Positions 1 to 20,000 of a DNA stretch of 64,000 bases are shown piece by piece. Each line of letters opens with the position of its first letter. Within the stretch, counting starts at the first letter, position 1. The notes below the pieces were generated by a model, which worked only from the letters and a program-made list of their open reading frames with translations, did no database searches and was not told the origin of the DNA. This DNA is from a virus. Where the stretch lies: positions 54,482 to 118,481 of the IMG/VR virus record IMGVR_UViG_3300040801_002923; one strand, given 5' to 3'. A program made the position numbers and the translations under genes.

Positions 1-39
1 GGTCAGGGTGTTGCACTTGGTGGTGCTGGTCGAGAGTAA
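1..39 (+). CDS. 3' end of an upstream gene (GQGVALGGAGRE*), possibly a tail tube or other structural gene
   Basis: Open frame from base 1 to TAA at 37-39, followed by a terminator; product guessed only from context. Confidence 0.4.
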   Translation, partial: GQGVALGGAGRE

Positions 40-105
40 GGTTAGCGTCCGTCGGAAGACAAGGAAGTCTAACACATCTAACAGGAAGTTTACTTTCTGG
101 ACGCA

Positions 106-134
106 GGGGGGCCTTTTGGCCCCCTTTCTTTATT
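106..134 (+). terminator. Rho-independent terminator
   Basis: GGGGGCC-TTTT-GGCCCCC stem followed by TTTCTTTATT. Confidence 0.8.
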
Positions 135-162
135 TGTTAGAACACGCTTTTTTACTGAACAC

Positions 163-168
163 TAAATA
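163..168 (+). promoter_or_regulatory. T4-like late promoter core TAAATA
   Basis: TAAATA 5 nt before ATG 174; the same hexamer recurs before most structural genes. Confidence 0.7.
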
Positions 169-173
169 ACCGC

Positions 174-1292
174 ATGGCTCTAGATCCTCGCTCATTTCTC
201 ACTAATCCTGTGGTCCGCCAGGTAGCCAACGCTGTGCCTGGCGGTGACCTAGTTATTCAAGCCGTAGACACAGTCCAGGACTTCCGTGATAACGGGGTGG
301 ACTTTAAGAACGGACGCCTGACAATCGGCAGTCCGTCACCATACGCAGTTGATTTAGTGGCTAGAGCTCCTAAGCACAAGTTCATGTTCGTACTGCAAGT
401 GGTTATCGATGGGCCGTTTCAGCAACTGTTCCCTGAATCGCTGCTTGAAGAGATGGCCTTCGTGGTTAAGCGAGCAGGTCGTCCTAATGTTTCGTTCGAC
501 TACGAGGAAGTAAACTTCTACAACCATCGATCCAAAGTACTGAAGCGGATTGAATACCAACCAATCACAATCGGCTTCTACGATGACATGAACAGCAACG
601 TTCTTTCGTTTCTTGAGCGGTATCTTGCAGTAACGTCTCCGATTTCACGTCTTGGCGATAAAGGGCAAGTATACAAGCTGTTTGAAGAGAGCGGTATGAA
701 CTCACCGAACGACTTTGCGTCCGCATCTACGGATGGCTTCGCTCGTGTGCCCGGCGTTACGGATACTGACACATCGATCATCAGCTATATCAATCTCTTT
801 CATATCTATAACGGTGGCTCGCTAGTGGATCAATACACGTTCGCTAAACCCAAGATCACAGAAATTCAGTTGGATGATGTTGATATGACAATGTCTGGAG
901 ACGGCACAGAGGCTGCGTTTACCTTCTCATACGAAGCACTTGGAATCCAGACACGCATTCGAGCTGCTGAGCTTCGCAATCGAATTCAAGATTACACGGA
1001 TGCAGGCCTACATACGCTCAATCTACCACGCTCGCTCAACACACCCCTATCTACTGGTGGTGTATTCGGTGCAGCTGGTCCTGGTGACGTCATTCGCGAA
1101 ACCGCCCGTGATATTGCTTCTGATGCGCTATCCGGTGCGGCGCTAGGAGGTGCAATTGGCGGCGCTATTGGAGGTGTCGGTGGTGCTATCCAGGCTGGGG
1201 TTGGTACAGCAACCAACGTCGTAGGAAACGCTGTTTCAGATCTTCTTGGTATTGGTGGCGACGATCAAGCCAACTCGGATAATTTCGACTAA
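174..1292 (+). CDS. Tail tube-fold protein (T4 gp19/gp54-like) with Gly-rich C-terminal tail
   Basis: KHKFMF...VKRAGRPNVSFDYEEVNFYN...IEYQPITIGFYDD...FTFSYE pattern typical of tube and tube-initiator proteins. Confidence 0.65.
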   Translation: MALDPRSFLTNPVVRQVANAVPGGDLVIQAVDTVQDFRDNGVDFKNGRLTIGSPSPYAVDLVARAPKHKFMFVLQVVIDGPFQQLFPESLLEEMAFVVKRAGRPNVSFDYEEVNFYNHRSKVLKRIEYQPITIGFYDDMNSNVLSFLERYLAVTSPISRLGDKGQVYKLFEESGMNSPNDFASASTDGFARVPGVTDTDTSIISYINLFHIYNGGSLVDQYTFAKPKITEIQLDDVDMTMSGDGTEAAFTFSYEALGIQTRIRAAELRNRIQDYTDAGLHTLNLPRSLNTPLSTGGVFGAAGPGDVIRETARDIASDALSGAALGGAIGGAIGGVGGAIQAGVGTATNVVGNAVSDLLGIGGDDQANSDNFD

Positions 1293-1303
1293 ATAGACTC
1301 GCT

Positions 1304-1738
1304 ATGGCGAGATCATATAAGCAAGGTGTATTCACACCGCGACATCCAGAGAAATATGTAGGCAACGCGAATAATATCGTGTTCCGCAGTTCATGGGAGC
1401 TTTCCATGAACCAGTTTCTAGATAACAACCCCAACATTCTTCGCTGGAGTTCCGAAGAGATCGCCATACCGTACGTTAAACCTACCACCGGACGCGTGCA
1501 CCGCTACTTCCCTGACTATTGGATCGAGTATAAGGACCGTGATGGCAATTTGCTTCAGGAAATACTCGAGGTAAAGCCAAGTACGGAAGTTAACCCTAAT
1601 CTCAAGAAACGCAAATCCAACTACGATAAGCTCACCTATGCAATCAACCTTGCAAAGTGGAAAGCAGCCTCTCAGTTTTGCGAGAAGCGGAACATGAAGT
1701 TTAGAATCCTAACCGAAAACCAGTTGTTCAGCCGCTAG
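1304..1738 (+). CDS. Head completion nuclease (T4 gp4-like, TnsA-type PD-(D/E)xK fold)
   Basis: FTPRHPEKYVG...FRSSWE...WSSEEIAIPY...HRYFPDYWIE...EVKP...NLAKWKAA...FRILTE. Confidence 0.9.
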   Translation: MARSYKQGVFTPRHPEKYVGNANNIVFRSSWELSMNQFLDNNPNILRWSSEEIAIPYVKPTTGRVHRYFPDYWIEYKDRDGNLLQEILEVKPSTEVNPNLKKRKSNYDKLTYAINLAKWKAASQFCEKRNMKFRILTENQLFSR

Positions 1739-1748
1739 TAAATACAAC

Positions 1749-2225
1749 ATGAGCAGCAAAAAAGAAATCGAAGTACCTACATCGCATCCTCTAGAGGCTG
1801 TACTTAACGTAGAGGAGGGGACTACTATGGTCCCTAAAACCATCATCCAGGGTGATGTTGAGCCGCACCAAACCTATGACGAGAAAGACATTGAGATCGA
1901 TAAGCAGTTTCAAGAGATTTACGATCTAGCGTTGACTGCGTTCGAAGATCAAACAGAAACGGCTGAAATTGTAGACCCCCAGTACAAGGCCCGCACAGCT
2001 GAAGTTGCAGCAGCTTATCTAACCACCGCTCTCAACGCCGCGAATTCCAAAATGGCACTCAAGCAACAACGCGAGAAGCTAGAGGTGTCCAAGTCTCGTA
2101 TTACCGGTGGCATCACAAACAATGGCAACATGATTGTCACCAATCGTAATGACCTCCTGCGATTGATGGAAGAAAGGGACGGCGAGCGCGACGCAATCGA
2201 AGGTGAGTTTTCCTCCGACGAGTAA
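1749..2225 (+). CDS. Probable terminase small subunit
   Basis: 158 aa helical protein immediately upstream of TerL; C-terminal TNNGNMIVTNRNDLL typical of gp16-like proteins. Confidence 0.6.
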   Translation: MSSKKEIEVPTSHPLEAVLNVEEGTTMVPKTIIQGDVEPHQTYDEKDIEIDKQFQEIYDLALTAFEDQTETAEIVDPQYKARTAEVAAAYLTTALNAANSKMALKQQREKLEVSKSRITGGITNNGNMIVTNRNDLLRLMEERDGERDAIEGEFSSDE

Positions 2226-2255
2226 CCCCTTGGTTTTGGGTATGTAAATACTCAC

Positions 2256-3809
2256 ATGTCACGAGCATTCAAAGATCCGCAAATCAAACGCGCCGGAACC
2301 GAGACGGAATATACCGTCGAGCAGATCCGTGAGTTAAAGAAGTGCATGAACGATCCGGTGTACTTTATCCGGACATACTGCCGAATTCAGCACCCCGTCG
2401 AAGGCGCTATTCCGTTTGAGCTCTACGACTATCAAATTGAGATGGTCGAGAACTTCCACAATCACAGAAACAACATCGTTCTTAGTGCACGGCAGACTGG
2501 TAAGTCGACTGTCTCTTCGATGTACCTGCTGTGGTTTGCTATGTTCAATTTCGACAAGACAATTCTCATTGCGTCGAATAAGAACAAAGGTGCGATGGAA
2601 ATGATCGCTCGTATTCAGTATGCATACAAGAACCTCCCGCACTGGCTAAAGCCGGGAGTAACTGACGATGGTTGGAACAAGCACTCACTAAAGTTTGACA
2701 ACGACAGTGAAATTCAGTCTGAAGCGACGTCGGAGAATTCTGGTCGTGGTATGTCTATCTCCCTACTCTACCTCGATGAGTTTGCGTTTGTTCCCCCAGC
2801 TGTAGCTCAAGAATTCTGGACAGCCATTGCGCCTACGTTGTCTACAGGTGGTGCTTGTATCATTTCTTCTACACCAAACGGCGATCAAAACATCTTCTCT
2901 GAGCTGTGGAACGGTGCTGAAATGGGAGTAAACAACTTCCATCCTTCTCATGTGCGCTGGGATCAACCACCGGGGCGCACTAAAGCGTTCAAGGAAGACA
3001 TGATTGCGCAGATTGGTGAAACGGCCTGGCTGCAAGAATACGAGTGTGAGTTCCTATCATCCGATGCGCTGCTGATCGACACACTTGTTCTTCAGAACTT
3101 GACGCCTGGCATATCCAAGATCAAACCAGACTTCGAGATCAATGATGTTAAGTTCTGGAAAAGACCACAGAGTGGTGTGCAATACCTTGTTGGAGTTGAT
3201 CCAGCTACTGGTACCGGCGAAGACTTCACTGTGATTACTGTTTGGGAATTTCCAGCGATGGAACAAGTGGCTATGTATCGTTCGAATACGATGTCGTCGG
3301 CCAAAGTGTATCCGATTCTCAAGAACCTACTGAAGTTCTTGGAGCGCACTGGGTCGCAGGTCTACTTCTCAATCGAAAACAATGGTGTTGGTGAGGGCCT
3401 TCTAGCACTGTATGAAGCAGACGAAAACCCACCTCTGATGTCCGAAATGATTTCTGAAACGGGCAAGAATCGTCAAGGCGTAACTACGACGGGCAAGTCT
3501 AAGATGCGTTGCTGTCTCAATCTCAAGGAATTGATTGAGAAGCGAACGATGACAATTAAAAGCGAGCTGATGCTCAAAGAGTTGAAGAAATTCGTTCGTC
3601 GCGCGGCTGGGTATTCAGCACAAAACGGGGCAACCGACGACATCATTTCTTCAACACTAATCGTCCTTCGAATTCTCGAAGAAATCTCCTCGTATGACCA
3701 AGCGGCCTTTGATACGCTCCGTGCAGTTGAGGACAGTCCGTGGTCCGAAGCTGACGTCATTCACTACGACGAAGAAGACCCTGATCACGGACCTATGCCT
3801 TTCATCTAG
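2256..3809 (+). CDS. terL: Terminase large subunit (T4 gp17-like)
   Basis: LYDYQ, Walker A SARQTGKS, Walker B LLYLDEFAF, SSTPNG, QEYEC, nuclease GVDPATG and DD motifs. Confidence 0.97.
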   Translation: MSRAFKDPQIKRAGTETEYTVEQIRELKKCMNDPVYFIRTYCRIQHPVEGAIPFELYDYQIEMVENFHNHRNNIVLSARQTGKSTVSSMYLLWFAMFNFDKTILIASNKNKGAMEMIARIQYAYKNLPHWLKPGVTDDGWNKHSLKFDNDSEIQSEATSENSGRGMSISLLYLDEFAFVPPAVAQEFWTAIAPTLSTGGACIISSTPNGDQNIFSELWNGAEMGVNNFHPSHVRWDQPPGRTKAFKEDMIAQIGETAWLQEYECEFLSSDALLIDTLVLQNLTPGISKIKPDFEINDVKFWKRPQSGVQYLVGVDPATGTGEDFTVITVWEFPAMEQVAMYRSNTMSSAKVYPILKNLLKFLERTGSQVYFSIENNGVGEGLLALYEADENPPLMSEMISETGKNRQGVTTTGKSKMRCCLNLKELIEKRTMTIKSELMLKELKKFVRRAAGYSAQNGATDDIISSTLIVLRILEEISSYDQAAFDTLRAVEDSPWSEADVIHYDEEDPDHGPMPFI

Positions 3810-3810
3810 C

Positions 3811-3850
3811 GTTGATCTTCCTGTTGAGCTCAGTGATAACTAAGACTCAC
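3811..3850 (+). promoter_or_regulatory. Conserved putative early promoter element, copy 1
   Basis: GTTGATC-N8-GAGCT-N2-GTGAT-N7-ACTCAC, matching 62551-62591. Confidence 0.55.
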
Positions 3851-3865
3851 AGGAGGAAAATAGCA

Positions 3866-4069
3866 ATGGCTGACCCTAGATATCGATGGCGCGTTGACAT
3901 CTTCGAATATGAGCGTGGGTGGGGCAGACGTCACGAAGGCGCGAAGTTTTTCGACGATGAAAACGAAGCGTACCAATTTGTCCGAGACTACAATTCTGAA
4001 AACACAGAAACGGTAGTCCCTGATTGGTATATGGCTGCTTCTGCCCCCCAAAAGGTGCAGGTGGCCTAG
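3866..4069 (+). CDS. Small hypothetical phage protein (67 aa, MADPRYRWRVDIFEYERGWG...)
   Basis: AGGAGG RBS at 3851 places the start at ATG 3866. Confidence 0.75.
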   Translation: MADPRYRWRVDIFEYERGWGRRHEGAKFFDDENEAYQFVRDYNSENTETVVPDWYMAASAPQKVQVA

Positions 4070-5007
4070 TGGGTATAGATGTTGTAGTTGCGTTCTTCGT
4101 ATTGGGCGCTGTTTCTGTACTCATTCGTTCACCAATCAATTTCCCCGAGGGGCTCTACCAAGGGTTGAGCCTCTTCCTGATGTTGGCTATTGGTCTGAAG
4201 GGCGGCGTGGCTTTAGCTGACCACTTTACAGCAAATGTCCTGCTCCAATCAGCCGGAGTGCTGACCTTGGGGCTGGTGATACCCATCATAGCCTTTCTGA
4301 TACTGCGAGGGGTCGGAAACTTTGATCGCATAAATGCTGGATCGATAGCGGCACATTATGGCTCTGTTAGTGTCGGAACTTATGCTGTTGCTATGTCTGT
4401 GTTGCAGAGTATGAACATCTCTTACGAAGAGTACTTCCCGATGTTTGTTGTTCTGCTGGAGATGCCGGCAATATTGGTGGGGTTGTGGCTTGCAAACCTG
4501 GGTGCTGGTGAGCTCAATAAGAAAGCGCTCCTACACGAAATGACTTGCAATCAGGGCGTTACGTTGATGCTCGGTGGTCTCATTATTGGTGCAATGGCCG
4601 GGCATGAAGGTACGGAATCAATTATGCCCCTGTTCAAAACCCTATTCAGCGGCGCACTAGCGTTATTCCTCCTCGAAATGGGGATCGTCGCAGCCAAGCG
4701 GGCTAGAGACATCGGTAACCGTCTGATGTTCTTGTTACCGTTCGGGATGACGATGCCAGTGATAGGCGCCGTGTTGGGGATGTGGATGGGTGATGTGTTG
4801 CACTTCTCTCAAGGTGGCGTGGTTCTACTCACTGTTTTGGCGGCAAGTTGTTCTTACATAGCGGTACCTGCTGTAATGCGCGCTGCTCTGCCTACAGCGG
4901 ATCATGGGATGGCGATAGCCACATCGCTTGCAATCACATTCCCATTCAACGTAATTGTTGGAATTCCAATGTACATCTGGTTCATTCAACGCTTGCACTT
5001 GGGTTAA
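4069..5007 (+). CDS. sbtA: Sodium-dependent bicarbonate transporter, SbtA family
   Basis: About 10 TM helices; FF.LG, LAIGLKGG, AAHYGSVS, LLEMPAI, LFLLEMG, AASCSYIAVPA, SLAITFPFN motifs; GTG start overlaps the upstream TAG. Confidence 0.9.
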   Translation: MGIDVVVAFFVLGAVSVLIRSPINFPEGLYQGLSLFLMLAIGLKGGVALADHFTANVLLQSAGVLTLGLVIPIIAFLILRGVGNFDRINAGSIAAHYGSVSVGTYAVAMSVLQSMNISYEEYFPMFVVLLEMPAILVGLWLANLGAGELNKKALLHEMTCNQGVTLMLGGLIIGAMAGHEGTESIMPLFKTLFSGALALFLLEMGIVAAKRARDIGNRLMFLLPFGMTMPVIGAVLGMWMGDVLHFSQGGVVLLTVLAASCSYIAVPAVMRAALPTADHGMAIATSLAITFPFNVIVGIPMYIWFIQRLHLG

Positions 5008-5021
5008 ATCCTCTGTATCAT
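4993..5021 (+). promoter_or_regulatory. Sigma70-like promoter for the HD-kinase gene
   Basis: TTGCAC-17 nt-TATCAT. Confidence 0.5.
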
Positions 5022-5047
5022 GCGACTCAACTTCTGAGGATAGAAAC

Positions 5048-6172
5048 ATGTACACAGATCAAGACAAATTCATTCACTGGTACAATGAAGTGTTCCGGTA
5101 CGATCCACTCTACGCAGCTATGTGGGAGACGGTCGAGGGTTCACCGTGGCACCGTGAGGCCAACGTCGGCGTTCACACCGATATGGTAGTCAGTCAATAT
5201 CTAATGCTGTCCAACAGCGAAGGGCCGGGCATGCTGGATAGTGAGTGCTTTAACGTCCGCGGCGCTCTCGGATGTGCTTTCCACGACGTTGGTAAGCCGC
5301 CCGCTATGCAGATCAAATTCAAGGAAGATCGTGGGGAGTACAAAGCATTCCATGGTCATGAATTGATTTCAGCCCGCATGTGGGAAAATTGGGCTGTTGG
5401 TAACTGGAGCTTTTTGCAACGTGAGTTCGGCTTCGAACCCATCGACATCTACACTGTGGGTTGGATGATCGAACATCATGTACCCTGGGCAACCAAGAAG
5501 GATGAAAAGCTCGACGCATTTGCTGCAACAGCTTACACGACGCTGGGGCATTCATGTGCATGGACCGATATGTTAATGGCTGATCAGCGTGGACGAATCT
5601 CTGATTCGAGCCACCAGCGGTTTGAAGAGGCGCAGATCTGGATTTACGATCATGAAGAGCGTCGTGCTAAGGCTGAGTGGGGGTTCGAGCTGGTCACCGA
5701 CAAGACGGTGTACATGCTTATCGGCGCCCCAGGAGCTGGCAAATCGACGTACCGCCAGAAGCTGCTAGCGGAAAATCCCGGTGCAGCGGTTCTAAGCATG
5801 GACGATCTTCGGATCGAGTTCTATGGTGAGCCGTATGAGAATGCGTTTGCCAAAGCCTCGAAGGACAGCTCTTTCAACGCCAAAGTGGATGCACGGTACA
5901 TCGACACACTTCGCCAGAATGAAGTTGTGATTCTCGACAATACCAATACGGCGGCACGCGCACGTAAGCGCTGGCTCGCTCCGGCACGGGCTCGTGACTT
6001 TCGAATTGTTGCGGTGTTGTTCCCTGTGCAATTGCAGACGGTGCTTGACCGACAGCGGTCGCGAACCGACAAGACAATCCCGGATCAGGTTGTATCCGAT
6101 ATGTACAACCGTATGTCGTTGCCTATGATCGGCGATTTCGATGAGATTATCGTTCACGACGGCAACCTCTGA
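5048..6172 (+). CDS. HD phosphohydrolase / P-loop kinase fusion (HD-Pnk-like nucleic acid end-healing enzyme)
   Basis: H...HT..V, FHDVGKP, GHE, HH and D HD-domain residues; C-terminal GAPGAGKST, D.TN, R...R AAA_33-type kinase; RBS GAGGA before ATG 5048. Confidence 0.85.
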   Translation: MYTDQDKFIHWYNEVFRYDPLYAAMWETVEGSPWHREANVGVHTDMVVSQYLMLSNSEGPGMLDSECFNVRGALGCAFHDVGKPPAMQIKFKEDRGEYKAFHGHELISARMWENWAVGNWSFLQREFGFEPIDIYTVGWMIEHHVPWATKKDEKLDAFAATAYTTLGHSCAWTDMLMADQRGRISDSSHQRFEEAQIWIYDHEERRAKAEWGFELVTDKTVYMLIGAPGAGKSTYRQKLLAENPGAAVLSMDDLRIEFYGEPYENAFAKASKDSSFNAKVDARYIDTLRQNEVVILDNTNTAARARKRWLAPARARDFRIVAVLFPVQLQTVLDRQRSRTDKTIPDQVVSDMYNRMSLPMIGDFDEIIVHDGNL

Positions 6173-6174
6173 GC

Positions 6175-6195
6175 AAGCCCCCTTCTGGGGGCTTT
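6175..6195 (+). terminator. Terminator hairpin
   Basis: AAGCCCCC-TTCT-GGGGGCTT just after the stop codon. Confidence 0.7.
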
Positions 6196-6211
6196 GCGCT
6201 AAATACGATCC

Positions 6212-6760
6212 ATGGAACTCAAAGTAATCCGTGGTGACCGTCTACTGACTCAATTCAACGAAGACTCTACGTACAACCAACTATACACTGGGATTGTTCA
6301 GGCTTTCCCCAACACACGAAAGCGGCAGAATGCCACAGCTCCGGTTGTGGTTAGTCGTATTGAATATGTCCCGTATGTGAACAACGGTGTGCTACGGGTT
6401 GAAGCCGAAGCCCGCAATGGTCCCGGTCGATATCAACCCGTTATACAGTTTCGTGAAGTGAGCTTTGCAGAACAGGGAGCTAGTAACACCGTCACATTTA
6501 GAGCAGCAGACGGTCAGGAGTATGGCATCGTACCTATCCGTCTAGCGGGGTCAAATATCAAAGTTCGTTGCACGTGTCTCGACTTCTATCACAGATTCAG
6601 CATGCACAACCACTCTGACGGTAGTTTAGCGGGCAATCCCCCACCTCCGTACGTTCCGAAGGGTGGGCGGCCATCGGTTAATCCAACGCAAACGCCCGGT
6701 GTGTGCAAACACATAATTAAGCTAGTAGAGCAGCTCAAGCGAGCTAGAATCGTTACTTAA
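6212..6760 (+). CDS. SWIM zinc-finger-like phage protein
   Basis: VRCTCLDF...GVCKHI (CxC...CxH); TAAATA 6 nt upstream. Confidence 0.7.
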   Translation: MELKVIRGDRLLTQFNEDSTYNQLYTGIVQAFPNTRKRQNATAPVVVSRIEYVPYVNNGVLRVEAEARNGPGRYQPVIQFREVSFAEQGASNTVTFRAADGQEYGIVPIRLAGSNIKVRCTCLDFYHRFSMHNHSDGSLAGNPPPPYVPKGGRPSVNPTQTPGVCKHIIKLVEQLKRARIVT

Positions 6761-7688
6761 CGACCTTACCGCCTTTCTTAAACGCGGCAGTGCTGGGCTT
6801 CGCAGGTTCTGCTTTGAAACTCTCGAGAACAGCCTTCGCGCGCGCGTCAGCTTCCGCATCAATTTGAACTGAGGCGGCCTTGGGGGCACCTTCGGTAATT
6901 ACAGGTTTGGCTGGAGCAGCCTTTTTGGCTTCTGCATTTTTCCGCTCAAGTTGAATCTCGCGGCGCTTTTTCTTCTCAGCTTCCTGTCGCTTGTGCTCAC
7001 GAATAATTTGCTTAACGTCTTTATCGCTAGTTTTGGCTAGGGCAGAATCACCTGTCTTCTCTTCAGCAGCTAGCAGCTTCTTGGCAACGCGGCGCGCTTC
7101 CGTTAGAGCATCTTGATCCGCAAGCGGTTTAACATCTACCGGCTTTTTAGCTGGTGCTGGTTTGGCGTCCTCAATAATAGTCTCCGAAGACGTCAGACGA
7201 GAGATAATGTCCTTGACTTGATCTTCTGTGACATTATCTCCTGGTCGCGCTGGCCGCTGTACTACCCGCTTCTCAGGCACATGATCTTTGGCCTTTGGTT
7301 TCACCGGTGTGGTTGGCGCCGGCTCTTCGGTTACAGGCTTCGGTGCATCCGCCGCCCGCGACTCGACACGCATTTGCATGTCTTCGCGCTTTACGTAAAT
7401 CTCCGGGGACTTACTAACGGTGATTTCGCCTCTATGGGCTTCGAAATAGTAGCCCGTGATCACAGCCGTCACAGTGAATGTGTATGTGGTAGGTACAAGG
7501 TATTGCATCTTCGGTAGGTCAACGCCCCATTTGCCGGGCTTCACACGCTTACACTCAAAACACATGTCAAATGGCTGAGACAAGATGTTGAAGCACACTT
7601 TAGCGTCACTATCATCTAGACCTTCAACAACAAGGTCGAATTCAAAATAGTGCTCGCGGCTGTTGACGATAATCAGTTGTTCGCTCAT
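6753..7688 (-). CDS. Hypothetical late protein with beta-rich N-terminus and Lys/Ala/Glu/Pro-rich C-terminus (possible internal head protein)
   Basis: 311 aa ORF with RBS and minus-strand TAAATA at 7710-7715; repeated [VIL]-x-E sites. Confidence 0.6.
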   Translation of the reverse strand: MSEQLIIVNSREHYFEFDLVVEGLDDSDAKVCFNILSQPFDMCFECKRVKPGKWGVDLPKMQYLVPTTYTFTVTAVITGYYFEAHRGEITVSKSPEIYVKREDMQMRVESRAADAPKPVTEEPAPTTPVKPKAKDHVPEKRVVQRPARPGDNVTEDQVKDIISRLTSSETIIEDAKPAPAKKPVDVKPLADQDALTEARRVAKKLLAAEEKTGDSALAKTSDKDVKQIIREHKRQEAEKKKRREIQLERKNAEAKKAAPAKPVITEGAPKAASVQIDAEADARAKAVLESFKAEPAKPSTAAFKKGGKVVK

Positions 7689-7723
7689 GAGATCCTCTTG
7701 TACAGAGCGTATTTATGGGAGCC

Positions 7724-8179
7724 TTACCTCTTCTTCCTGAAGTTGAGGGCCTTAACGATGTTCTTGGAGATGCGTTGGATGTTCTGAGCAGCCACTCTCA
7801 TTCGTTCTTCTGTCATATTCATGAAATTGGCCACACGAACAATCGTCTTCGCACGCTTAGCAGAAACAATGTATTCCTTTTCTGTGGTGGTTTCACCTAT
7901 CGTGATTCGAAGGGTAACATGATTCTTTTCACGGAAGATGTCAGGATACTCGGGGCGAACGTACCCTGGGTGATCCACAGGCTGATACAGGTTGCCAATC
8001 TCCCCAGGCGCCATGGGGTGGCTACCACCGCCGCCCGGGCGGACAATAACTTCGATCTTACCCGCTAGATGGAAAATGTGAGCTGTAATCAGTCCACCAC
8101 TACATGCAGGTAAGCAACTGATGCCGCCTGTAATGATTTGGGTACAAACCTGCGACTCGGTAAGGGTCGTTTCTGACAT
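7724..8179 (-). CDS. Hypothetical protein
   Basis: 151 aa ORF coupled to the upstream minus-strand gene (TAATG overlap). Confidence 0.65.
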   Translation of the reverse strand: MSETTLTESQVCTQIITGGISCLPACSGGLITAHIFHLAGKIEVIVRPGGGGSHPMAPGEIGNLYQPVDHPGYVRPEYPDIFREKNHVTLRITIGETTTEKEYIVSAKRAKTIVRVANFMNMTEERMRVAAQNIQRISKNIVKALNFRKKR

Positions 8180-8757
8180 TACGGTTGTGGATCTCTCTCA
8201 CAAACCTCAGCTGTGCTTGGTGTTCCGGTGCGATCTCTGAGCGTGAAGACAGTCAGAGGTGTCACCCCATCATCGTCAAACACAGTCAGGGTTTTAGCAG
8301 TGGTGTCAATGCGAGTACGGTTTGTGTGGTATTTGCGAACAAGATCAATTAGAGCTTCTATGTCCACAAGATCCAGCAAAATCTGTTCAGTATTCGAGAA
8401 AGTCGCGTTCGCCCGCCCGCCCATCGTAAAGACATCTGTATAAGCAGATTGATCAGCTTCCCATACGCCATCGGCAATCACCTCCGGCTCCGAGGCACAG
8501 CAGGCACCCTCTTGAAAGCGCTCAAATGGGCTGGAAATGCTACTGCCTCCGTCGGCGTCATATACGAAATCCTCACGAGGGTCAAAACCATCTACGTCAG
8601 TGAATTCATATTTGTACCAGCCGTTCGCTACCTCAACCATGGCACCATCATTTACAACTAGCGCATCGTCACTGAGTCGATAGATGTCGATAGTTGGTGT
8701 AAGACCTGTTTGTGGCGTGCCATTGTTTCGAAATCTGGCAGCGATGACTTTTGCCAT
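8179..8757 (-). CDS. Hypothetical structural protein
   Basis: Start MAKVIAARF with AGGAG RBS; perfect TATAAATA on the minus strand at 8790-8797. Confidence 0.65.
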   Translation of the reverse strand: MAKVIAARFRNNGTPQTGLTPTIDIYRLSDDALVVNDGAMVEVANGWYKYEFTDVDGFDPREDFVYDADGGSSISSPFERFQEGACCASEPEVIADGVWEADQSAYTDVFTMGGRANATFSNTEQILLDLVDIEALIDLVRKYHTNRTRIDTTAKTLTVFDDDGVTPLTVFTLRDRTGTPSTAEVCERDPQP

Positions 8758-8789
8758 AACCCTTTGTGCTCCTGACGACGTTCGACTCG

Positions 8790-8824
8790 TATTTATATCA
8801 CCTTCCAAACGCGCTTCATAAATA
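8790..8824. promoter_or_regulatory. Divergent pair of late promoters
   Basis: TATAAATA (minus, 8790-8797) and TAAATA (plus, 8819-8824) back to back. Confidence 0.65.
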
Positions 8825-8859
8825 AGGCAAACACGTATACACAGGTTTCGGAGCGCTGA

Positions 8860-9105
8860 ATGAGCATGTTTTCCCTTCTTTCGGGTCTAGATCGAGACGC
8901 TAAAGCTGCAGCGGCGCTCGACCCCAATGCACCCAGTATCACATATCAGCAGTACGATATTCCGGTGAGCGGTGAGGAGACATGTGTCCTTATTCCAGAG
9001 CGAGAATGTAATAACTTTGAGAACGCCGTGATAGAAGCCGGTGAGCTCTCACAAATCAAACTGAAGAAGCTGGTGAGGGAACACCGCGGCATCTTCTCAC
9101 AATAA
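8860..9105 (+). CDS. Hypothetical protein
   Basis: 81 aa ORF with GGAG RBS. Confidence 0.6.
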   Translation: MSMFSLLSGLDRDAKAAAALDPNAPSITYQQYDIPVSGEETCVLIPERECNNFENAVIEAGELSQIKLKKLVREHRGIFSQ

Positions 9106-9119
9106 CCATAAGGTAGAAT

Positions 9120-9608
9120 ATGTCAGGAGTAGTCCTACTAAGACCAGTTGGTGGCGGCGGATCAGGAACGTCAAATATCACGATCAGTACGATTAACGGC
9201 CAGCTGGTACCTACATTTCAGGACACCACACGTTCAAAGCAGCTTAGCGTTACAGATCACCCAGTTGTGTGGTCTGAAAATAGGCTACGCGACCGCGATT
9301 GGCTAAATATTGGTAATGCCGTCGATGCTGTGAGTGGTTATATTGCTGACCTCAATGGAACAATTGTGAGTGCCGTTGCACAATGTGAGAGCACAGGAGT
9401 TGCGGAAAAGGAAATCCACGTGTTCGTAAATGGCACAGATCAGGGAAGTTTGGGTATTTTAGGTCCGGGAACTGGAGTGACCTTTATAAATACATCAACA
9501 GACATTGACTTTAACCAAGGCGACTTGATTCGCCTCCGTGCCCTGGATGGCGTTTCGGGCCAGATTGAAGACACGGTGGTTAAACTCACACTAAAGTGGC
9601 GAGCTTAA
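9120..9608 (+). CDS. Virion structural protein, stand-alone copy of the C-terminal domain of the 9623 gene product
   Basis: TTR.K.LS....VVWSENR....W..IGNAVDA.SGY...N.TIV and IEDTVV...LKWR shared with the end of the 949 aa protein. Confidence 0.75.
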   Translation: MSGVVLLRPVGGGGSGTSNITISTINGQLVPTFQDTTRSKQLSVTDHPVVWSENRLRDRDWLNIGNAVDAVSGYIADLNGTIVSAVAQCESTGVAEKEIHVFVNGTDQGSLGILGPGTGVTFINTSTDIDFNQGDLIRLRALDGVSGQIEDTVVKLTLKWRA

Positions 9609-9622
9609 GGAGAAGCTAACAA

Positions 9623-12472
9623 ATGAGTTTTATCGTTCGTAACCTAACAGGTTCGGCAATCGCGATTGACGATCTGGGGTTGACAATCCCGGCATCAGCT
9701 GACCTGGACATCACATCCGAGCAACCACAAGACGTTGCTCTATCTGACGACCTTGTAGCTGCCATTCAAGCGAACAGCGTCGCTGTTCTAGATCCACTCG
9801 ATGGAACTACCCCACTAAACGCGGCACGAAGTGAAGAGATCGTTCGTGTTCACAACGATCCGCACTATCGGATCCGAGGTGGTACTCTAGATCAGCTCGA
9901 AGATGTTGATCTGACTGGTGCAGCACAAGACTTCGTGCTGCAGCAAAACGGTGCAGGCACGTTCGTTCCCGTATCTCCTTCATCGCTTGCTTCGAACATT
10001 AATCTCGACGACCTCGGTGATGTTGATGACGCAACGCCACACACTCTCGACACAATTTATGTGTTCAAGGGTGATGGCACAAACCTCGATGTCGTTGACG
10101 CAACAGCTGATCCAGAATTTGGTGAGGTTATCGAAGACATTATTGGTGCAGCATTCCAGAATGGTACTGACACCACTTTTGTGTATGACGATGGGAATGG
10201 TACTCTTCAGGTAGACGTTGATGACGTATTCCTACGCAACACAGGCGATACACTCGACAGCGGCACGCTAACAATCGCTTCTGGTGCAGCAATCAACGTA
10301 GCGACGGGCGGCACGCTTACAATCCAAGACGATCCCGTTAACCCCAAGGATGCGGCTAACAAGGAGTACGTTGACAGCGTAGCATCAGGTCTCGATCCAA
10401 AAGAATCCGTACGAGTCGCAACGACGCCAGTAGGCGGTGACATTGGTGGTACATATAACTCTGCTGGTGGTACAGGCGGTACGGGTAACTTCACCGGTGT
10501 CGACCTTACCTCCGATGCGATTTTCGACGGTGTGCCATCAGGCGTCGGCGCTCTCCAGGTCGGCGACCGTATTCTCATCAAAAACCAGACTGACAGCACA
10601 CAGAACGGTATCTACGTTGTAACCGTTGCTGGGGCAGCTGGCTCTATCGAACGTGCTCCGGACCACGACGCCTCTCCTTCTAACGAAGTGTCTGGTGGTA
10701 ACTTCACGTTCGTTGAGAACGGTACCGTTAACGCGGGCACAGGTTGGGTATTGCAGGGCGACGGCGAACAAACACTGAACACAGATCCGATCACATGGGC
10801 GCAGTTCAGCGAAAGTACAACATTGAACGCCGGGGAAGGTCTGTCGCAGAGTGGTAGCACAATTGATCTCGATATCGACGACCTAACCGTTGCTTCAATC
10901 GTAGATACAGACTTCCTTGCGTTTCACGATGGCAACGGAGCAGCACAGCCATCCGGTTCTCAAACATACAAGATTACAGCAGCTGACTTTATTGCTGATC
11001 TGGGTATTCTCACCGGTGGTCCAGGTGGCGCTCTAACAGCGTCTGATGGTGTCCTGATCACAGCTGGTAATGACATCCAGCTTGACATCACTAGCCTCGC
11101 CAACACGCCTGTAACAGCTGCTGATGAGCTGGTATTTGACGATGGTGCTTCAGGCTCTCACATCAAGCGTACGGCTGGTGACTTCCTTAACGACTTGGAC
11201 GTTGTACGCAATCTGGGTGGTAACGGTATTGCTGTACAAACGGCGCCTGACACATATACGGCACGCTCAATCGCAGTTGATGGTCTTGGCAACCTAGACG
11301 GTCTTGCCGTTACAAACGGTGACGGTGTTGCTGGTAACCCTACACTCGGCCTCGACATCCAGAACCTGCCAATTCAAACGGGCATTTCCACAGTTGACCG
11401 AGTTGCTGTTTACGACGTAACTGCCGATGCAAACGTCTACTACACAGTTGGCGACATCGCTGGTGCTCTTGCAAACGTCAACTCTTTTGAAACATGGTCC
11501 GCAGCTGGTAACACGACAGGTGATGCGAGCATCGTTGCCGACGACGCGACCGATACAGTAACACTGACTGGTGGCACGGGTATCAACATCGATTTCAATT
11601 CCGCGTCTGATACGCTGGTATTTGACTTCGACGTCGCCCTACTGACAGCTGGTACAGGTCCTCTTACGCTTTCGGATCAGATTGTTGTACTCGACGGTAC
11701 AGATAATCTGCGCTTCACACTGCAGGATCTGGTTGACGATCTCGACATCGTTAACGGTATCGCGGCTGACGGTATTCTGGTCCGCACAGCAGCTGATACA
11801 TACGCTTCTCGCACGATCGAAGCTTCCGCCGCAGCTGGCGAAGAAGGTCTAACGGTAACAAACGGCGACGGTGTTGCTGGTAACCCAACAGTCGGCCTAG
11901 ATATCGACAACCTGGCTGACAGCGCCGACGATCTAGCGGCAACTGATGAGCTTGTTGCATTCGATGGCACGAACAATGTTTCGATGTCTGGTCAGCAGGT
12001 TGCTGACGGTGTATCAACAATTCTGGGTCTAGGCGGATTGACGGTAACAACAATCGGCGGCCAGGAAGTCCTAACACTCGAAGATACAACACGAGCAAAC
12101 AAAGTGCTTTCGATTGAGACAACGCCAGTTGTATGGTCTGAAAACCGCATCACCAACAACGATTGGATGAGTATCGGTAACGCCGTTGACGCCGACAGTG
12201 GATATGTTCTTCCTCTCAACGCAACAATTGTTAAGGTGTCGATGCACACAGCAGACGACAATAACAACTCGAAGGGCATCGATCTTTACATCGACGGTGT
12301 GAATAACGGTAACATCGCTGCGTTCACAGCTGTGAACGGTGAAAACGAAGTTACCGACGTTACTCTCAACATCGATGTCAACGCTGGCCAGAAGATTCGT
12401 CTACGCGGCGATGCAGCCGGTGGTGTAATTGAGGACACTGTAGTTACCGTATGGCTCAAGTGGAGAGGCTAA
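9623..12472 (+). CDS. Long fibre/appendage structural protein (949 aa)
   Basis: KDAANKEYVD..ASGLDPKESVRVAT...GDRILIKNQ...NGIYVV fibre module; repeated L.VTNGDGVAGNPT.GLDI.NL; acidic Gly/Thr-rich composition. Confidence 0.8.
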   Translation: MSFIVRNLTGSAIAIDDLGLTIPASADLDITSEQPQDVALSDDLVAAIQANSVAVLDPLDGTTPLNAARSEEIVRVHNDPHYRIRGGTLDQLEDVDLTGAAQDFVLQQNGAGTFVPVSPSSLASNINLDDLGDVDDATPHTLDTIYVFKGDGTNLDVVDATADPEFGEVIEDIIGAAFQNGTDTTFVYDDGNGTLQVDVDDVFLRNTGDTLDSGTLTIASGAAINVATGGTLTIQDDPVNPKDAANKEYVDSVASGLDPKESVRVATTPVGGDIGGTYNSAGGTGGTGNFTGVDLTSDAIFDGVPSGVGALQVGDRILIKNQTDSTQNGIYVVTVAGAAGSIERAPDHDASPSNEVSGGNFTFVENGTVNAGTGWVLQGDGEQTLNTDPITWAQFSESTTLNAGEGLSQSGSTIDLDIDDLTVASIVDTDFLAFHDGNGAAQPSGSQTYKITAADFIADLGILTGGPGGALTASDGVLITAGNDIQLDITSLANTPVTAADELVFDDGASGSHIKRTAGDFLNDLDVVRNLGGNGIAVQTAPDTYTARSIAVDGLGNLDGLAVTNGDGVAGNPTLGLDIQNLPIQTGISTVDRVAVYDVTADANVYYTVGDIAGALANVNSFETWSAAGNTTGDASIVADDATDTVTLTGGTGINIDFNSASDTLVFDFDVALLTAGTGPLTLSDQIVVLDGTDNLRFTLQDLVDDLDIVNGIAADGILVRTAADTYASRTIEASAAAGEEGLTVTNGDGVAGNPTVGLDIDNLADSADDLAATDELVAFDGTNNVSMSGQQVADGVSTILGLGGLTVTTIGGQEVLTLEDTTRANKVLSIETTPVVWSENRITNNDWMSIGNAVDADSGYVLPLNATIVKVSMHTADDNNNSKGIDLYIDGVNNGNIAAFTAVNGENEVTDVTLNIDVNAGQKIRLRGDAAGGVIEDTVVTVWLKWRG

Positions 12473-13477: not shown

Positions 13478-15145
13478 ATGGCAGTCACTTATCTAAGAGC
13501 GTTTACAACAACATGTCCGGGTGCTCTAATTGACGCAGTTAACGATGACGTGTCAATCACACCGGTACTTGAACAGATCACAAACGAAGGTGGAGCTGGG
13601 AACTCTACGTTCTACTTCACGTCTGCTCTATCCGGGCCAGAAGAGACAGCTTTTGATGCTATTCTCTCAACGTGGACGTGTGATCCTATTCCTGAAACGT
13701 ACACCAGTTTCGACGAGTTTGCTGACGATGTGCGCGGATTTGGAATCTACGCGTACGCAAAGACGCAGGGCAATGGTACGCCTGTTTCGAGCAATGGTTT
13801 GCTGGTTACGCGAACGGGCGTCGGCGTATATCAGTACGAATTCACACAACCATACGGTTCTGCCGATTACGCAGTAGTTGGCAATCCAATTCTAACCGTA
13901 ACCGATACCAATTTGCAGGTATCAAACGAAACATCAACAGGATTCACAGTTACGGTAGGACAAGGCGATAACGGTACAACATCTGATGTGCCAGTCGACG
14001 AACTCCACACAGTTGTTGTGTTTGGCGTAGATGGACCAACTGGCTTAGGAAGTGCTTACCAATCATGGCTTGCAGTTGGTAATGTAGGAACAGAAGAAGA
14101 CTTCCTTGATGATCTTCGTCCACCACCAGCCGATCTCGCTGTCGTTCAGGCTCGTCGTTCTACAATTGCTGCAGATATCCCCCTCGCGTGGATTGATGTA
14201 AACTTTGATGTCACTGATGTAGAAAACGATCCTGCGGTTATAGAGCACGACGATGTTCTTCGTGATCGCATCCTGATCAAGGAAACAGGACTGTACGAAG
14301 TGTGGTATTCGTGGACCGTTGACGACGAAGCGCAGGGCCGTGTGCGTGTTAACGATAATGTTGTCCTGCCTGGATCTGAGCGCGAGGCTGGTGAGATATT
14401 CGACGCCAATGATGTTATCGTAAGCATGAGCGTGAAAACAATCGCTCAGCTAACAGCGGGTGATTTCCTAACAGTTCAGATCCAATCACGCACAACAGCC
14501 GAAATTTTGTTTGAGAATGCGACATTCATTGTAACAAAACTTGAAGGCACCCAGGGCCCAGCTGGCCCACCTGGTGCTGGTTCTTCGGTTGTGCTCGAAG
14601 ACGAGGGTGCTTTGGTACCCGGTGGCCCTCACGGTATACTTAACTTTGTTGGCGACGGCGTCAACGTAGTTGACGCAGGCGGCGGTAGAGCTACTGTCAA
14701 CGTTCCCGGTTTCGAAGGAAAGGAAATCTTCTACCACCACAACGGCACAACGACGCAGACGTTGTCAGGTTCGTTTGCTACAGCGCTGTTTAACTCAGCT
14801 GTTCGAACAGACGGTGGAGCTTTCTCGTATGCTTCAGGAGAAGTGACAGTCACACAAACGGGGTGGTATGAAGTCACATACAACATCGGCGCTGACTCCG
14901 ACAATGGCGATCGCTCGACACTAGAAGCAGTGCTTCAGCAAAATGCTGTCGACGTGCCAGGCACGTTTGCTTACTCGTATCATCGAACTTCCGCCGCGGG
15001 TGAAAATACAGCGTCATGCACAGCGATTGTAAATATCACAGCGAACGATGTGATGCGAGTTCGGATTCGCATTCGCGACGGCTCAGGAATCGTAACACTA
15101 TCGAACGCGTGCCGCCTAATGATTAGACGCGTCGATGGGCCTTAA
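13478..15145 (+). CDS. Fibre protein with tandem C1q-like domains and a short collagen-like linker
   Basis: ILIKETGLYEV, GTQGPAGPPGAG, GEVTVTQTGWYEV; EDEG..VPGGPHG.LNFVG module shared with the 12532 protein. Confidence 0.7.
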   Translation: MAVTYLRAFTTTCPGALIDAVNDDVSITPVLEQITNEGGAGNSTFYFTSALSGPEETAFDAILSTWTCDPIPETYTSFDEFADDVRGFGIYAYAKTQGNGTPVSSNGLLVTRTGVGVYQYEFTQPYGSADYAVVGNPILTVTDTNLQVSNETSTGFTVTVGQGDNGTTSDVPVDELHTVVVFGVDGPTGLGSAYQSWLAVGNVGTEEDFLDDLRPPPADLAVVQARRSTIAADIPLAWIDVNFDVTDVENDPAVIEHDDVLRDRILIKETGLYEVWYSWTVDDEAQGRVRVNDNVVLPGSEREAGEIFDANDVIVSMSVKTIAQLTAGDFLTVQIQSRTTAEILFENATFIVTKLEGTQGPAGPPGAGSSVVLEDEGALVPGGPHGILNFVGDGVNVVDAGGGRATVNVPGFEGKEIFYHHNGTTTQTLSGSFATALFNSAVRTDGGAFSYASGEVTVTQTGWYEVTYNIGADSDNGDRSTLEAVLQQNAVDVPGTFAYSYHRTSAAGENTASCTAIVNITANDVMRVRIRIRDGSGIVTLSNACRLMIRRVDGP

Positions 15146-17029: not shown

Positions 17030-20000
17030 ATGAGACTGAACTTTCGCCAGGGAATCGTAAGCTACCCGCAGCCAGGTAACCCACCTAGCTTTCTGCTTGT
17101 GAGTGGTAACTTCGTTGATCTTCGTACAACCAACGGCCCAATAAGTGTTACGTTTGCCCACAAAGATACCGATTACTTCTTCTCTGAAGGAAGAGATGTA
17201 GTCGGAGCTTGGGGACCATTCCCCGATGGCTTTCCGGTGTGGTTGTACTGGGATATCGATCGTCAAACTGGCCAGCGTACTTTCGGTCACACAACTGTGG
17301 AGCCTATCGCCAGTATTTCAGCTCCTCTCGATCCTGTAGAAGACCAGCATTGGTTCAACACAGGCAATGCAACACACTTTGTGTGGCAAAGTGGTCGATG
17401 GGTAGAGGTAATTCGCGTCTTTGCAGCTCGATACGATGGTGGTGGTATTCCGTTTGGCGCGCTCGGCAGCAATTCACAACTCCCCTTCGCAGGTACACAG
17501 GTCGGTCTTGTTGGTGGAACAGTTTTCGCTGGCACACTTCTATTTGACGAAGCTGGCAACCCTATTGTAAAGTCTTCAAACGGCACATTCTACACCACTG
17601 AAACAGAGTTCTTCTCCGGTGCTACACGTATCAATGGTATCCGCCTCGAGAGCGACGTCATCACAGGCGTCGTCGCGCAGAACACACCCGCGTACTCCGT
17701 TGTCCGTTTCGGCTCAGACAACCGACTACAACTAGCTGAATACAACGACTCAGAGCTCAATGCAATCGCGATTACAACGCAGCAAGGGCTTGTTAATGAT
17801 TTGATCAACGTTGTGGCTCAAGGTGTTGTCGTCAATGAACAGTGGAACTGGCCTAACATTGGTGCTGCCTTGTACATCGGTGCGGGTGGAGTGCTCACAG
17901 AAGAAGACGCGCACGATACAAATCCATCAGTATTCCCAATCGCAAGAGTCCCAGTCGCTCGTGTAATCGGCAGACGCTCAGTTATCTTCCAACAAGGTCT
18001 CGGTGGGGTTGGTCCTGCAGGTCCGGCTGGTAGTGTTGGTAATCTACCTTTCGCCTCGTCAACAGAGCGCGGTACGACGTTCCTCGACGTAGACCCTGCA
18101 ACAGGCACACTACCCATCGCAGTTGGCGTTAACAGTCCGTTGCTGGCTGGCGCGCCTTTTGCGCCTCTAGCTCACCTCACGGATCCAAACGCACACCCAG
18201 CAACGAGTATCACATTCGCGCCGAGCGGTAACCTAACGTCAACTGACGTGCAGGCGGCACTCGAAGAGCTCGATACGTTTGCTCAGAGTATTGCAGCAGG
18301 ATTTGATCCAAAGGAATCTGTGCGTGCAGCTACAAACGGACCACTAGCGGGCGCTGTATACACCCCAACAAACGGTTTCGCAGGTACAGGCCAATTTACG
18401 TCCCCGCCTACGGTGATTGACGGCGTGACGCTGCAGACAGGCGACCGTGTTCTTGTTAAAGATCAAGCTGATCCTCGTGAGAACGGCATCTACACAGTCG
18501 TTACAGCGGGTGGTTTCTGGGACCGAGCTCCTGATCAAAACGGCACACCATCGGCCGAAGTGTCCGCTGGTAACTTCACGGTCGTTGAGCAGGGTGCTGT
18601 AAACACCAACGTTGGATGGATCCTCGCCGGCAACGGTGAACTTACACTGAACACGGATCCACTCGTATGGGTTCGCTTCTCCGGAGGCGTTCCACTATCG
18701 CACCTGACCGATCCCGACGCACACACTGCAGCTAATATCACCAACGTAGCCGCCGTGTCAACGCAGTTTGGCACACCGTCGGTCGTCGCCGATGTTGCAG
18801 CAACAGATGTTCAGGGAGCAGTTAACGAGCTACTCGACGAGAAGGCTCTGGCACGTCCTGCCTACACCGCGTTTGGAAATCTACCTGATGCAACCACGGC
18901 TAGTGGAATGTATGCCTTCGTTTCTGGCGACGACAAGCACTATGTGTCTGACGGCGTTGATTGGATCGGCCTGATCCGAGAAGACTCCAATCTCACAATT
19001 GATATTCCTTTCTTTGCGCGCGATACGTGGGCAACACCTGGTGATATCATGGCGTCATACGTCGCCGCAAGAACCATTACCGTTCCGGCTGGTGCTCCAG
19101 GTTCTGTTGCTGTGGCCAACACACCAGCAGCATCAAACACCAGCTTCGATCTGGTTCAGGTTCCTGTTGGCGGTGTCGGTTCTTTCATCGTCGGCACAGT
19201 AGACTTTGCAGCTGGATCAAACGTCGGTACTTTCAACGTTGCTGCTAACTTTGGTCTAATTGCTGGCGAGCAGCTTCGCCTTGTTGCCTCGGCACCTGTT
19301 GACGGTACGATTGCTGACATTTCCGTTAACATCGTTGGTTGTGCACCTCTAGCAGTTTGCATCCCTGTAACACCTGCACCGCCTCCTGTTGTCGGTCCAG
19401 AACTACTGATCTTCGGCTATGCATATGACGGTGTGTTCTCCTTGGATCCTGAAGATCCACCAATTGTGATTGCAGATGCTGGATATCTTGTCGATGCGTA
19501 CGCTGTCACGGAAAATAGTGACCTAAGTGACGTGATTGCACAAGGTGGCGATCCTATCACAAGCATCACCATCCGCGCGACGCATTACTACGCAGCCCCT
19601 GATAACTTCACACAGGTAGAGCGCGAAACGCCGCCCGAGTATCCATCGAGCGAGTGGTATGCTCTAGGCACAGGACCTAACCCAACGTATGGTGTTCGTC
19701 TGACGTACAACGCAGCGAGTGTAGATTATCCAGCTCTAACGCCGCTGGATATCACCTCTCTCACAGGCACGTTCGACTACACAGAACTTGCTGGTGGAAC
19801 ACCATCGGCTATCGGCCATTGGATTCGCGCGGAAGTCACAGCTGAGAACGGCGGTGGTGGTGAAACCGTTAAGGCTCTCTACCTGCGCAGACAAGTCGCA
19901 CAACCAAACGACTTGAACGCAATAGATCTCCTACTGACTGTTGATGGCTGGGTAGACCAGCACGACGCTCCAGTAACGCCTCTTGCACGTAATGCCGGTG

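Follow-up and report, generated by a model that had tools for sequence, protein, structure and literature searches.

We analyzed a 64,000-nucleotide window (the whole stretch of DNA under study, bases 54482-118481 of the 118,481-bp IMG/VR virus record IMGVR_UViG_3300040801_002923), in which the original prediction had placed a phage-encoded gene for the sodium/bicarbonate transporter SbtA without its PII-like regulator SbtB. The open reading frame occupies 4069..5007 on the + strand, runs from a GTG at 4069 to a TAA at 5007, and encodes 312 amino acids. Its product, referred to here as phage SbtA, matches Pfam Sbt_1 (PF05982, "Na+-dependent bicarbonate transporter superfamily") with an E value of 7.3e-105 and 351 bits against a cut-off of 27. 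The match spans profile positions 2-308 of 308 and recurs in the scan of the whole record, which bears out the claim of a full-length SbtA-family gene; no NCBIfam model matches the protein.

The column of the GTG at 4069 is the first column in all 25 homologues aligned, and a TTG at 4024 was ruled out as the start on the same grounds. The G of this GTG (4069-4071) is also the last base of the TAG stop codon (4067-4069) of the small upstream gene g051, and an AGGTGG lies at 4059-4064, four bases ahead of the GTG. Given this stop/start overlap and the AGGTGG, sbtA is translationally coupled to a small phage gene, as had been claimed. The original prediction also described sbtA as inserted right after terL; it does lie near terL, but it is the second gene after it, with g051 in between. 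The genes of the locus are as follows.

174..1292, + strand: g047, tail tube-like protein that opens the conserved block (matches to PHROG tail tube families phrog_4542 and phrog_13438; homologues similarly ordered in related viral loci)
1304..1738, + strand: g048, TnsA-like endonuclease-fold protein (Pfam Tn7_TnsA-like_N, E 2e-23)
1749..2225, + strand: g049, small terminase subunit TerS (phrog_445, E 3.1e-8)
2256..3809, + strand: g050, large terminase TerL of T4 type (Pfam Terminase_6N and Terminase_6C)
3866..4069, + strand: g051, small phage protein of 67 aa (phrog_14410, function unknown)
4069..5007, + strand: sbtA-like permease of 312 aa (Pfam PF05982, full length)
5048..6172, + strand: g053, HD and P-loop kinase, polynucleotide-kinase-like (Pfam AAA_33, weak HD match)
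6212..6760, + strand: g054, conserved phage protein, end of the conserved + strand block (homologues directly after g053 in most related loci)

The reading frame of g051 is open from a TTG at 3812, and an AGGAGG precedes the ATG at 3866, which is most likely its start. Copies of g051 that are 53-57% identical directly follow terL in three related viral loci (L158, L159, and L162), all without SbtA, and g051 is therefore a phage gene. The kinase g053 further matches NCBIfam Pnkp and PSTK (partial) as well as phrog_6931 and phrog_505. Between terL and g053, the search for promoter-like and terminator-like sites turned up nothing convincing. Promoter-like sites occurred at chance level (5 versus 4.7 expected), and terminator-like sites numbered 8 versus 4.1 +/- 2.2 expected. 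Near the locus, the sole + strand terminator-like site (4090-4109) falls within the sbtA reading frame and was taken as chance. The T4 late-promoter motif (TATAAATA) had three matches versus 0.62 expected, none of them near the sbtA locus.

Phage source and integrity of the locus

The record was rated 34% complete by CheckV, implying a genome near 350 kb. It also encodes a tail tube protein, TerS, TerL, a gp32-like single-stranded DNA-binding protein, a RecA/UvsX-like protein, a UvsW-like helicase, and a clamp-loader-like ATPase. TerL is closest to those of jumbo myophages, the best isolate match being Xanthomonas phage XacN1 (50.5%), with further close matches in Stenotrophomonas phages CM1 and RAS14, in Xoo-sp13, and in Ralstonia phage RsoM2USA. 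The source of the DNA is a T4-like jumbo phage with a genome of roughly 350 kb. No tRNA genes were found in the 118-kb record, which consequently gives no host clue of that kind, and a megablast search of window positions 1-12000 against GenBank phages returned no match.

For comparison, 80 related IMG/VR loci, several of them from 290-364 kb records and some of them near-duplicates, were retrieved with a profile of the g053 kinase, which is accordingly present in all 80. The block of tail tube, TnsA-like, TerS, and TerL genes, followed by the kinase and g054, is conserved in the related viral loci, and in 60/80 terL precedes the kinase gene, with both on one strand. The TnsA-like g048 (1304-1738) holds the same position in most of these loci at 44-69% identity, with one truncated copy at 33%; given this conserved position, g048 behaves as a core gene and not as a mobile element. 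An SbtA homologue was found in 0/80. The gap between terL and the kinase gene ranges from 33 to 5485 nt in the 60 loci and is 210 nt or less in 21 of them. In the sbtA phage it is 1238 nt long (window 3810-5047) and is filled by g051 and sbtA. Elsewhere (loci L158-L237) it holds HNH, DUF7487/REase-like, HD_4, and SPFH/Band 7 genes, as well as endosialidase-chaperone-domain genes and unknown genes of about 410-430 aa. The terL-kinase junction is a variable cargo hot spot of this phage family.

The original prediction had named a chimeric assembly as one outcome that would overturn it. Contigs assembled independently from raw reads bridge the terL/g051, g051/sbtA, and sbtA/g053 junctions with 0 mismatches; these come from three runs of one microbial-mat study, which may include the source sample and are not independent biological replication. 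Given that such contigs cross all three junctions, an assembler join is ruled out and the sbtA locus is not chimeric. As befits an auxiliary metabolic gene (AMG), sbtA is a host-derived metabolic gene in a viral genome with viral genes on both sides, TerL upstream and the kinase downstream.

Fold and conservation of phage SbtA

The AlphaFold2 (AF2) model of phage SbtA has a pLDDT of 90.9 and a pTM of 0.88. Its helices break at residues 97-101 and 260-264, exactly where the conserved crossover motifs YGSVS and SCSYI lie. In the fold comparison, the top five matches are without exception Synechocystis SbtA (Slr1512, SbtA1; PDB 7CYE, 7CYF, 7EGK, 7EGL, and 8ZOR), with TM scores of 0.77-0.87, followed by ASBT at about 0.65, and the phage protein aligns to Synechocystis SbtA (7cye) in two halves with an E value of 1.8e-24. 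The two-half match, the AF2 breaks, and the fold matches together give the ten-helix 5+5 inverted repeat with discontinuous TM4 and TM9. The two proteins thus share a Pfam family, a fold, and two broken helices at 26-28% identity, and the phage copy keeps the crossover motifs. Unlike Synechocystis SbtA, it is without the disordered cytoplasmic loop of ~47 residues between TM5 and TM6 (S166-W212) and has 312 rather than 374 aa; the alignment jumps from query 153/chain 166 to query 161/chain 221.

Conservation within the family was assessed against bacterial homologues. Phage SbtA keeps 92 of 95 columns that are invariant among 21 bacterial homologues, one of the losses being the GTG initiator. 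It deviates at 5 of 119 columns with at least 90% conservation, in each case conservatively, and the other rows deviate at 0-5. Judged from its sequence, phage SbtA is intact, with no excess of odd residues at conserved positions. The Na+ site of Synechocystis SbtA is formed by backbone oxygens of F110, G111, A112, A320, and S322 (PMC8352866). The equivalents in phage SbtA are Y97, G98, S99, A258, and S260, where the motif is kept and backbone ligands are not a matter that sequence can judge.

Origin in marine Gammaproteobacteria

Among 5.8 billion clustered proteins, the listed matches with more than 61% identity to phage SbtA were only P0002 (77%) and P0003-P0005 (68-70%), all of which sit on short contigs. 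The next matches are 55-61% identical, and the named rows there are marine Gammaproteobacteria, with Halieaceae, Kangiellaceae, Litorivivens, Ferrimonas, Marinobacter, Microbulbifer, and Shewanella among them. A tree of 110 rows (the query, 24 of 119 other listed matches, chosen as top or named ones, and 85 of 86 locus-derived proteins, L007 being left out because its match was shorter than 250 residues) was built by a quick IQ-TREE search with SH-aLRT support only. Phage SbtA groups with P0002-P0005 at support 100, and the stem of this group measures 0.4 changes per site. This five-member clade is nested, again with support 100, in a 31-row clade whose named rows are all marine heterotrophic Gammaproteobacteria (Halioglobus, Kangiella, Neptuniibacter, Ferrimonas, Marinobacter, Microbulbifer, Shewanella, and others), and it adjoins a Halieaceae-containing group with support 91. 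Cyanobacterial SbtA falls in a distant part of the tree. The phylogeny that the original prediction had proposed for finding the donor thus shows, as far as tree placement can, that an ancestor of the phage lineage took sbtA from a clade of marine heterotrophic Gammaproteobacteria.

P0002 and P0134, a 65%-identical homologue of the g053 kinase, are each found on exactly one Logan contig of 4945 bp, and this shared contig size, which is what ties P0002-P0005 to phages, suggests that a related phage carries the same sbtA-kinase order. A scan of JGI metagenomes with a profile of the five-member clade returned 67 loci, the best at 58-59% identity, and no further member of the clade.

Rarity and a second viral lineage

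The original prediction had noted that SbtA is not a commonly described phage gene, and the searches agree. No match to phage SbtA was obtained by tblastn against 50,697 GenBank phage records, no PHROG family matches it, and no description of a phage-encoded SbtA was found among the papers listed by full-text literature searches. A single-protein scan of IMG/VR returned no relative, and a profile scan (2.9 million contigs) returned the phage's own record and only six distant loci at 37-38% identity. Among phages, SbtA is thus rare and, it appears, undescribed.

The six distant viral proteins form their own group in the tree beside short cyanobacterial forms, with support 91-93 (L002, 7989-9631; L004, 3089-4680; L006, 7968-9271; records G001-G005). 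One of them is encoded in a 518,643-bp record with direct terminal repeats that was rated 100% complete and has a T4-type TerL. No match to an NCLDV capsid was found in that record, a weak negative given that the NCLDV control matched nowhere. In this phage, SbtA is followed by an alternative oxidase (AOX/PTOX-like), and a TerC-family protein or a cupin takes that place in other loci. Neither P-II nor purE was found in the complete 518,643-bp genome. Given that this second group, from phages of roughly 500 kb, branches separately and near cyanobacterial forms, stand-alone SbtA genes entered very large phages at least twice.

The missing PII partner and the purE-purK operons of bacteria

Bacterial neighborhoods were counted in the best 80 of 599+ bacterial loci. 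A PII-like reading frame follows sbtA in 64/80 (51 by tblastn, 53 by jackhmmer, and 64 in their union), and Pfam P-II was confirmed in both PII loci examined, in line with the expectation that sbtA in bacteria normally comes with a PII gene. Among the 16 loci without PII are L008-L013, the complete set of six from the donor clade; another of the 16, L021, has just 507 nt of downstream sequence. In the phage, the gene downstream of sbtA is the HD/kinase g053, and no P-II match at E<=1 was found anywhere in the 118,481-bp record (about 34% of the genome), so the claimed absence of a neighboring sbtB holds. The view that the transporter is unregulated because SbtB is missing fares differently, given that the donor clade is without sbtB too and has a divergent LysR-type regulator upstream of sbtA instead (6/6 by tblastn, Pfam-confirmed in 2). 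Since 0/6 donor-clade loci have PII, the stand-alone state predates the transfer, and the absence of SbtB is inherited from the donor clade rather than a loss in the phage.

In five of the six donor-clade loci, purE-purK lies immediately downstream of sbtA, and across the 80 bacterial loci the pair directly follows sbtA or sbtA-PII in 11. Pfam confirmed purE in five loci and purK in two. In the tree, the purEK-linked loci fall in the donor clade, in its Pseudohongiella-containing sister, in PII clades (three loci), and at a distant betaproteobacterial locus. The 31-row clade contains five of the six loci that have purEK and no PII, plus L012. The layout in L008-L011 and L013, followed by the further linked loci, is given below.

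About 2700-3700, - strand: LysR-type regulator in L008-L011 and L013
About 4000-4930: sbtA in L008-L011 and L013
About 4950-5450: purE in L008-L011 and L013
About 5430-6610: purK in L008-L011 and L013
Further purEK-linked loci: L015, L023, L027, L032, L058, and L082

The order sbtA-PII-purE-purK occurs in five other bacterial loci. A linkage of sbtA with purEK was not found described in the literature searched. The permeases of the sbtA-purE-purK loci (L008, Halioglobus; L009, Kangiella; L010, Neptuniibacter; L011, Alteromonadaceae) are like phage SbtA in belonging to the same clade (support 100), in being 53-56% identical to it by tblastn and about 310 aa long with a short central loop, in having no adjacent PII gene, and in sharing all core motifs. 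Unlike them, the phage copy has neither purE-purK downstream nor a divergent LysR upstream and lies in a packaging/structural block, where its neighbors are phage genes.

Proposed role and alternatives

Bicarbonate transport is known from SbtA1 (PMC8352866), from SbtA2 of marine alpha-cyanobacteria, which is about 25% identical to SbtA1 and takes up bicarbonate in Escherichia coli (PMC13187645), and from SbtA-family proteins of autotrophic Pseudomonadota (PMC10880623 and PMC12628692). Given that so divergent a member as SbtA2 takes up bicarbonate, this function holds across deep divergence of the family. Bicarbonate is a substrate of PurK, and purK mutants depend on high CO2 (PMC10880623). The recurrence of operons that join a family of bicarbonate transporters to purEK makes a good genomic case for these permeases feeding PurK. 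The DAB/MpsAB inorganic-carbon pumps indicate that non-autotrophic bacteria need an active bicarbonate supply to grow at atmospheric CO2 (PMC6689103); in contrast to phage SbtA, they belong to an unrelated family, rely on energy-coupled CO2 hydration, and are not phage-borne.

We consider it probable, with a fair margin for doubt, that phage SbtA acts as a host-derived, stand-alone importer supplying bicarbonate to the host's PurK and other carboxylases during phage replication. The protein would insert into the inner membrane of the infected cell and, like the rest of its family, bring in bicarbonate through an ion-coupled elevator mechanism. Such import would sustain bicarbonate-using enzymes of the host, PurK (N5-CAIR synthetase, purines) first, and could also benefit carbamoyl-phosphate synthetase (pyrimidines), acetyl-CoA carboxylase, and anaplerotic carboxylases. 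Copying a genome of roughly 350 kb many times would make for high demand, and the importer would be needed most under scarce CO2 and dominant bicarbonate, for instance, in an alkaline, photosynthetically active microbial mat. We infer that the mat label of the habitat fits high daytime pH and scarce CO2. The setting would differ from that of the canonical SbtA1-SbtB system in having no adjacent SbtB and in belonging to a heterotroph and its phage rather than to a carbon-concentrating mechanism. Of the uses first proposed for the gene, purine synthesis gains from sbtA lying directly upstream of purE-purK in the nearest clade, and host carbon fixation is unlikely because the relatives are heterotrophic.

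Several observations weigh against a bicarbonate supply for purine synthesis. No match to AIRC (purE), PurK-type ATP-grasp, carbamoyl-phosphate synthetase ATP-grasp, or beta-carbonic anhydrase was found in the 118-kb record (about 34% of the genome); the purine link therefore rests on the donor operon and not on the phage's own genes. The record covers about a third of the genome, which leaves the other two thirds outside view. The position of sbtA in a packaging/structural block means that it is possibly expressed late. The synonymous codon choice of sbtA is atypical (z = -3.4 versus 82 other phage genes of at least 450 nt). The bicarbonate ligands S114, Y140, S324, and S327 of Synechocystis SbtA were proposed by docking and mutagenesis, with no resolved substrate (PMC8352866), and phage SbtA keeps two of the four, the serines S101 and S262, with V127 in place of Y140 and A265 in place of S327.

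This last point bears on the possibility that the protein is a working transporter with another benefit, moving a different small anion, or moving Na+ (or Cl-) and bicarbonate in a way that adjusts pH, ion balance, or membrane potential. Without a PII "valve," transport could run in either direction; SbtB has been proposed to stop back-leak of bicarbonate (bioRxiv 10.1101/2023.08.10.552651), and the record has no PII. Coupling also varies in the family, given that SbtA2, which unlike phage SbtA is paired with a partner (SbtB2), shows an apparent chloride dependence (PMC13187645), and the characterized family members all lie outside the heterotroph clade. V127 and A265 are invariant in the 26-row alignment and are therefore a trait of the whole alignment rather than phage decay. 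However, both crossover serines, S101 and S262, are invariant there as well. Every characterized family member cited moves bicarbonate, and the recurrent operon with purE-purK in 11/80 loci points to the substrate of PurK. We regard such another benefit as unlikely, although it is the strongest competitor of a bicarbonate supply to PurK. If the host were an autotroph or a phototroph, the gene could boost its carbon fixation within a CO2-concentrating mechanism. This would suit the carbon-concentrating systems from which SbtA is best known, those of cyanobacteria and chemolithoautotrophs (PMC8352866 and PMC10880623), and the runs containing the sequence are labeled microbial mat metagenome. Such a role is nonetheless very improbable, given that all named rows of the 31-row donor clade are marine heterotrophic Gammaproteobacteria, that the cultured phages with the closest TerL have Xanthomonas, Stenotrophomonas, and Ralstonia as hosts, and that cyanobacterial sequences are distant in the tree.

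Other explanations concern the gene's place in the phage rather than its substrate. A neutral passenger or decaying hitch-hiker of no benefit to the phage is suggested by the hot spot, whose cargo varies from locus to locus, and by the atypical codon usage of sbtA; against this stand the intact frame, the 92 of 95 invariant columns kept, the lack of surplus deviations at conserved columns, the coupled start, and a five-member clade of 68-77% identity that preserves the family core, which implies long retention under constraint. We consider a passenger improbable. The codon choice of sbtA stays unusual although the phage SbtA clade appears old. That bacterial DNA was joined to the phage sequence, as contamination or as a chimera of the assembly, is suggested by the metagenomic origin of the record and the single study behind the three runs, and it is extremely improbable: the genes on either side are parts of a single conserved phage block, the junctions are bridged without mismatch by short contigs, the gene shares its start with the stop of g051, and the 77%-identical P0002 appears on the same 4945-bp contig as a kinase homologue. 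The base composition of sbtA is also typical of the phage genes (GC 0.503, z = 0.24; GC3 z = 0.87).

Returning to bicarbonate supply, phage auxiliary genes for nutrient acquisition, such as cyanophage pstS, resemble it in being host-derived, in lying among viral genes of a viral genome, and in supporting a bottleneck supply step. Phage SbtA differs from these in its predicted substrate, inorganic carbon, and in its likely heterotrophic host, and it adds a member of a known transporter family to the auxiliary metabolic genes of phages. Such genes reveal host processes that limit virus production. It is possible, and we put it forward only tentatively, that bicarbonate supply limits phage nucleotide synthesis in heterotrophs where CO2 is scarce, that jumbo phages captured stand-alone SbtA importers at least twice independently, once from marine Gammaproteobacteria and once as a cyanobacteria-like form, and that SbtA of heterotrophs has an unrecognized housekeeping role in feeding PurK, to which the recurring operons with purE-purK, with or without PII, point. 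If true, dark bicarbonate uptake would join the processes that limit phages of heterotrophs, and it would be tied to purine synthesis rather than photosynthesis, which would be relevant to reading bicarbonate-labeling and dark-fixation data in mats and seawater. The donor operon of sbtA-purE-purK with LysR and no PII offers a testable hypothesis for the role of the many SbtA homologues in heterotrophic bacteria. A compact and naturally stand-alone phage SbtA may also interest efforts to move bicarbonate transporters without their regulators into other cells.

Other features of the window

Metabolic genes elsewhere in the window encode a FolE2-type GTP cyclohydrolase I (49606-50697), an Fe/Mn superoxide dismutase (51792-52388), a dCTP deaminase/dUTPase-like protein (54485-55048), and an AAA_28 kinase-like protein (48795-49421). 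FolE2 consumes GTP, in keeping with a high demand for purines; no QueC, QueD, or QueE genes were identified among the neighbors scanned. The UvsW-like helicase (27778-30327, 849 aa) has a LAGLIDADG_3/Hom_end match at residues of about 354-432, between UvsW_N and ResIII, and has the appearance of an intein or an inserted homing endonuclease. LAGLIDADG_3 also occurs in several TerL homologues of related phages, which are 856-885 aa long. Three large putative structural proteins are encoded at 13478-15145 (555 aa, with a BclA C-terminal domain), 17030-23071 (a 2013-aa open reading frame), and 9623-12472 (949 aa, matching head-decoration and virion-structural PHROGs).

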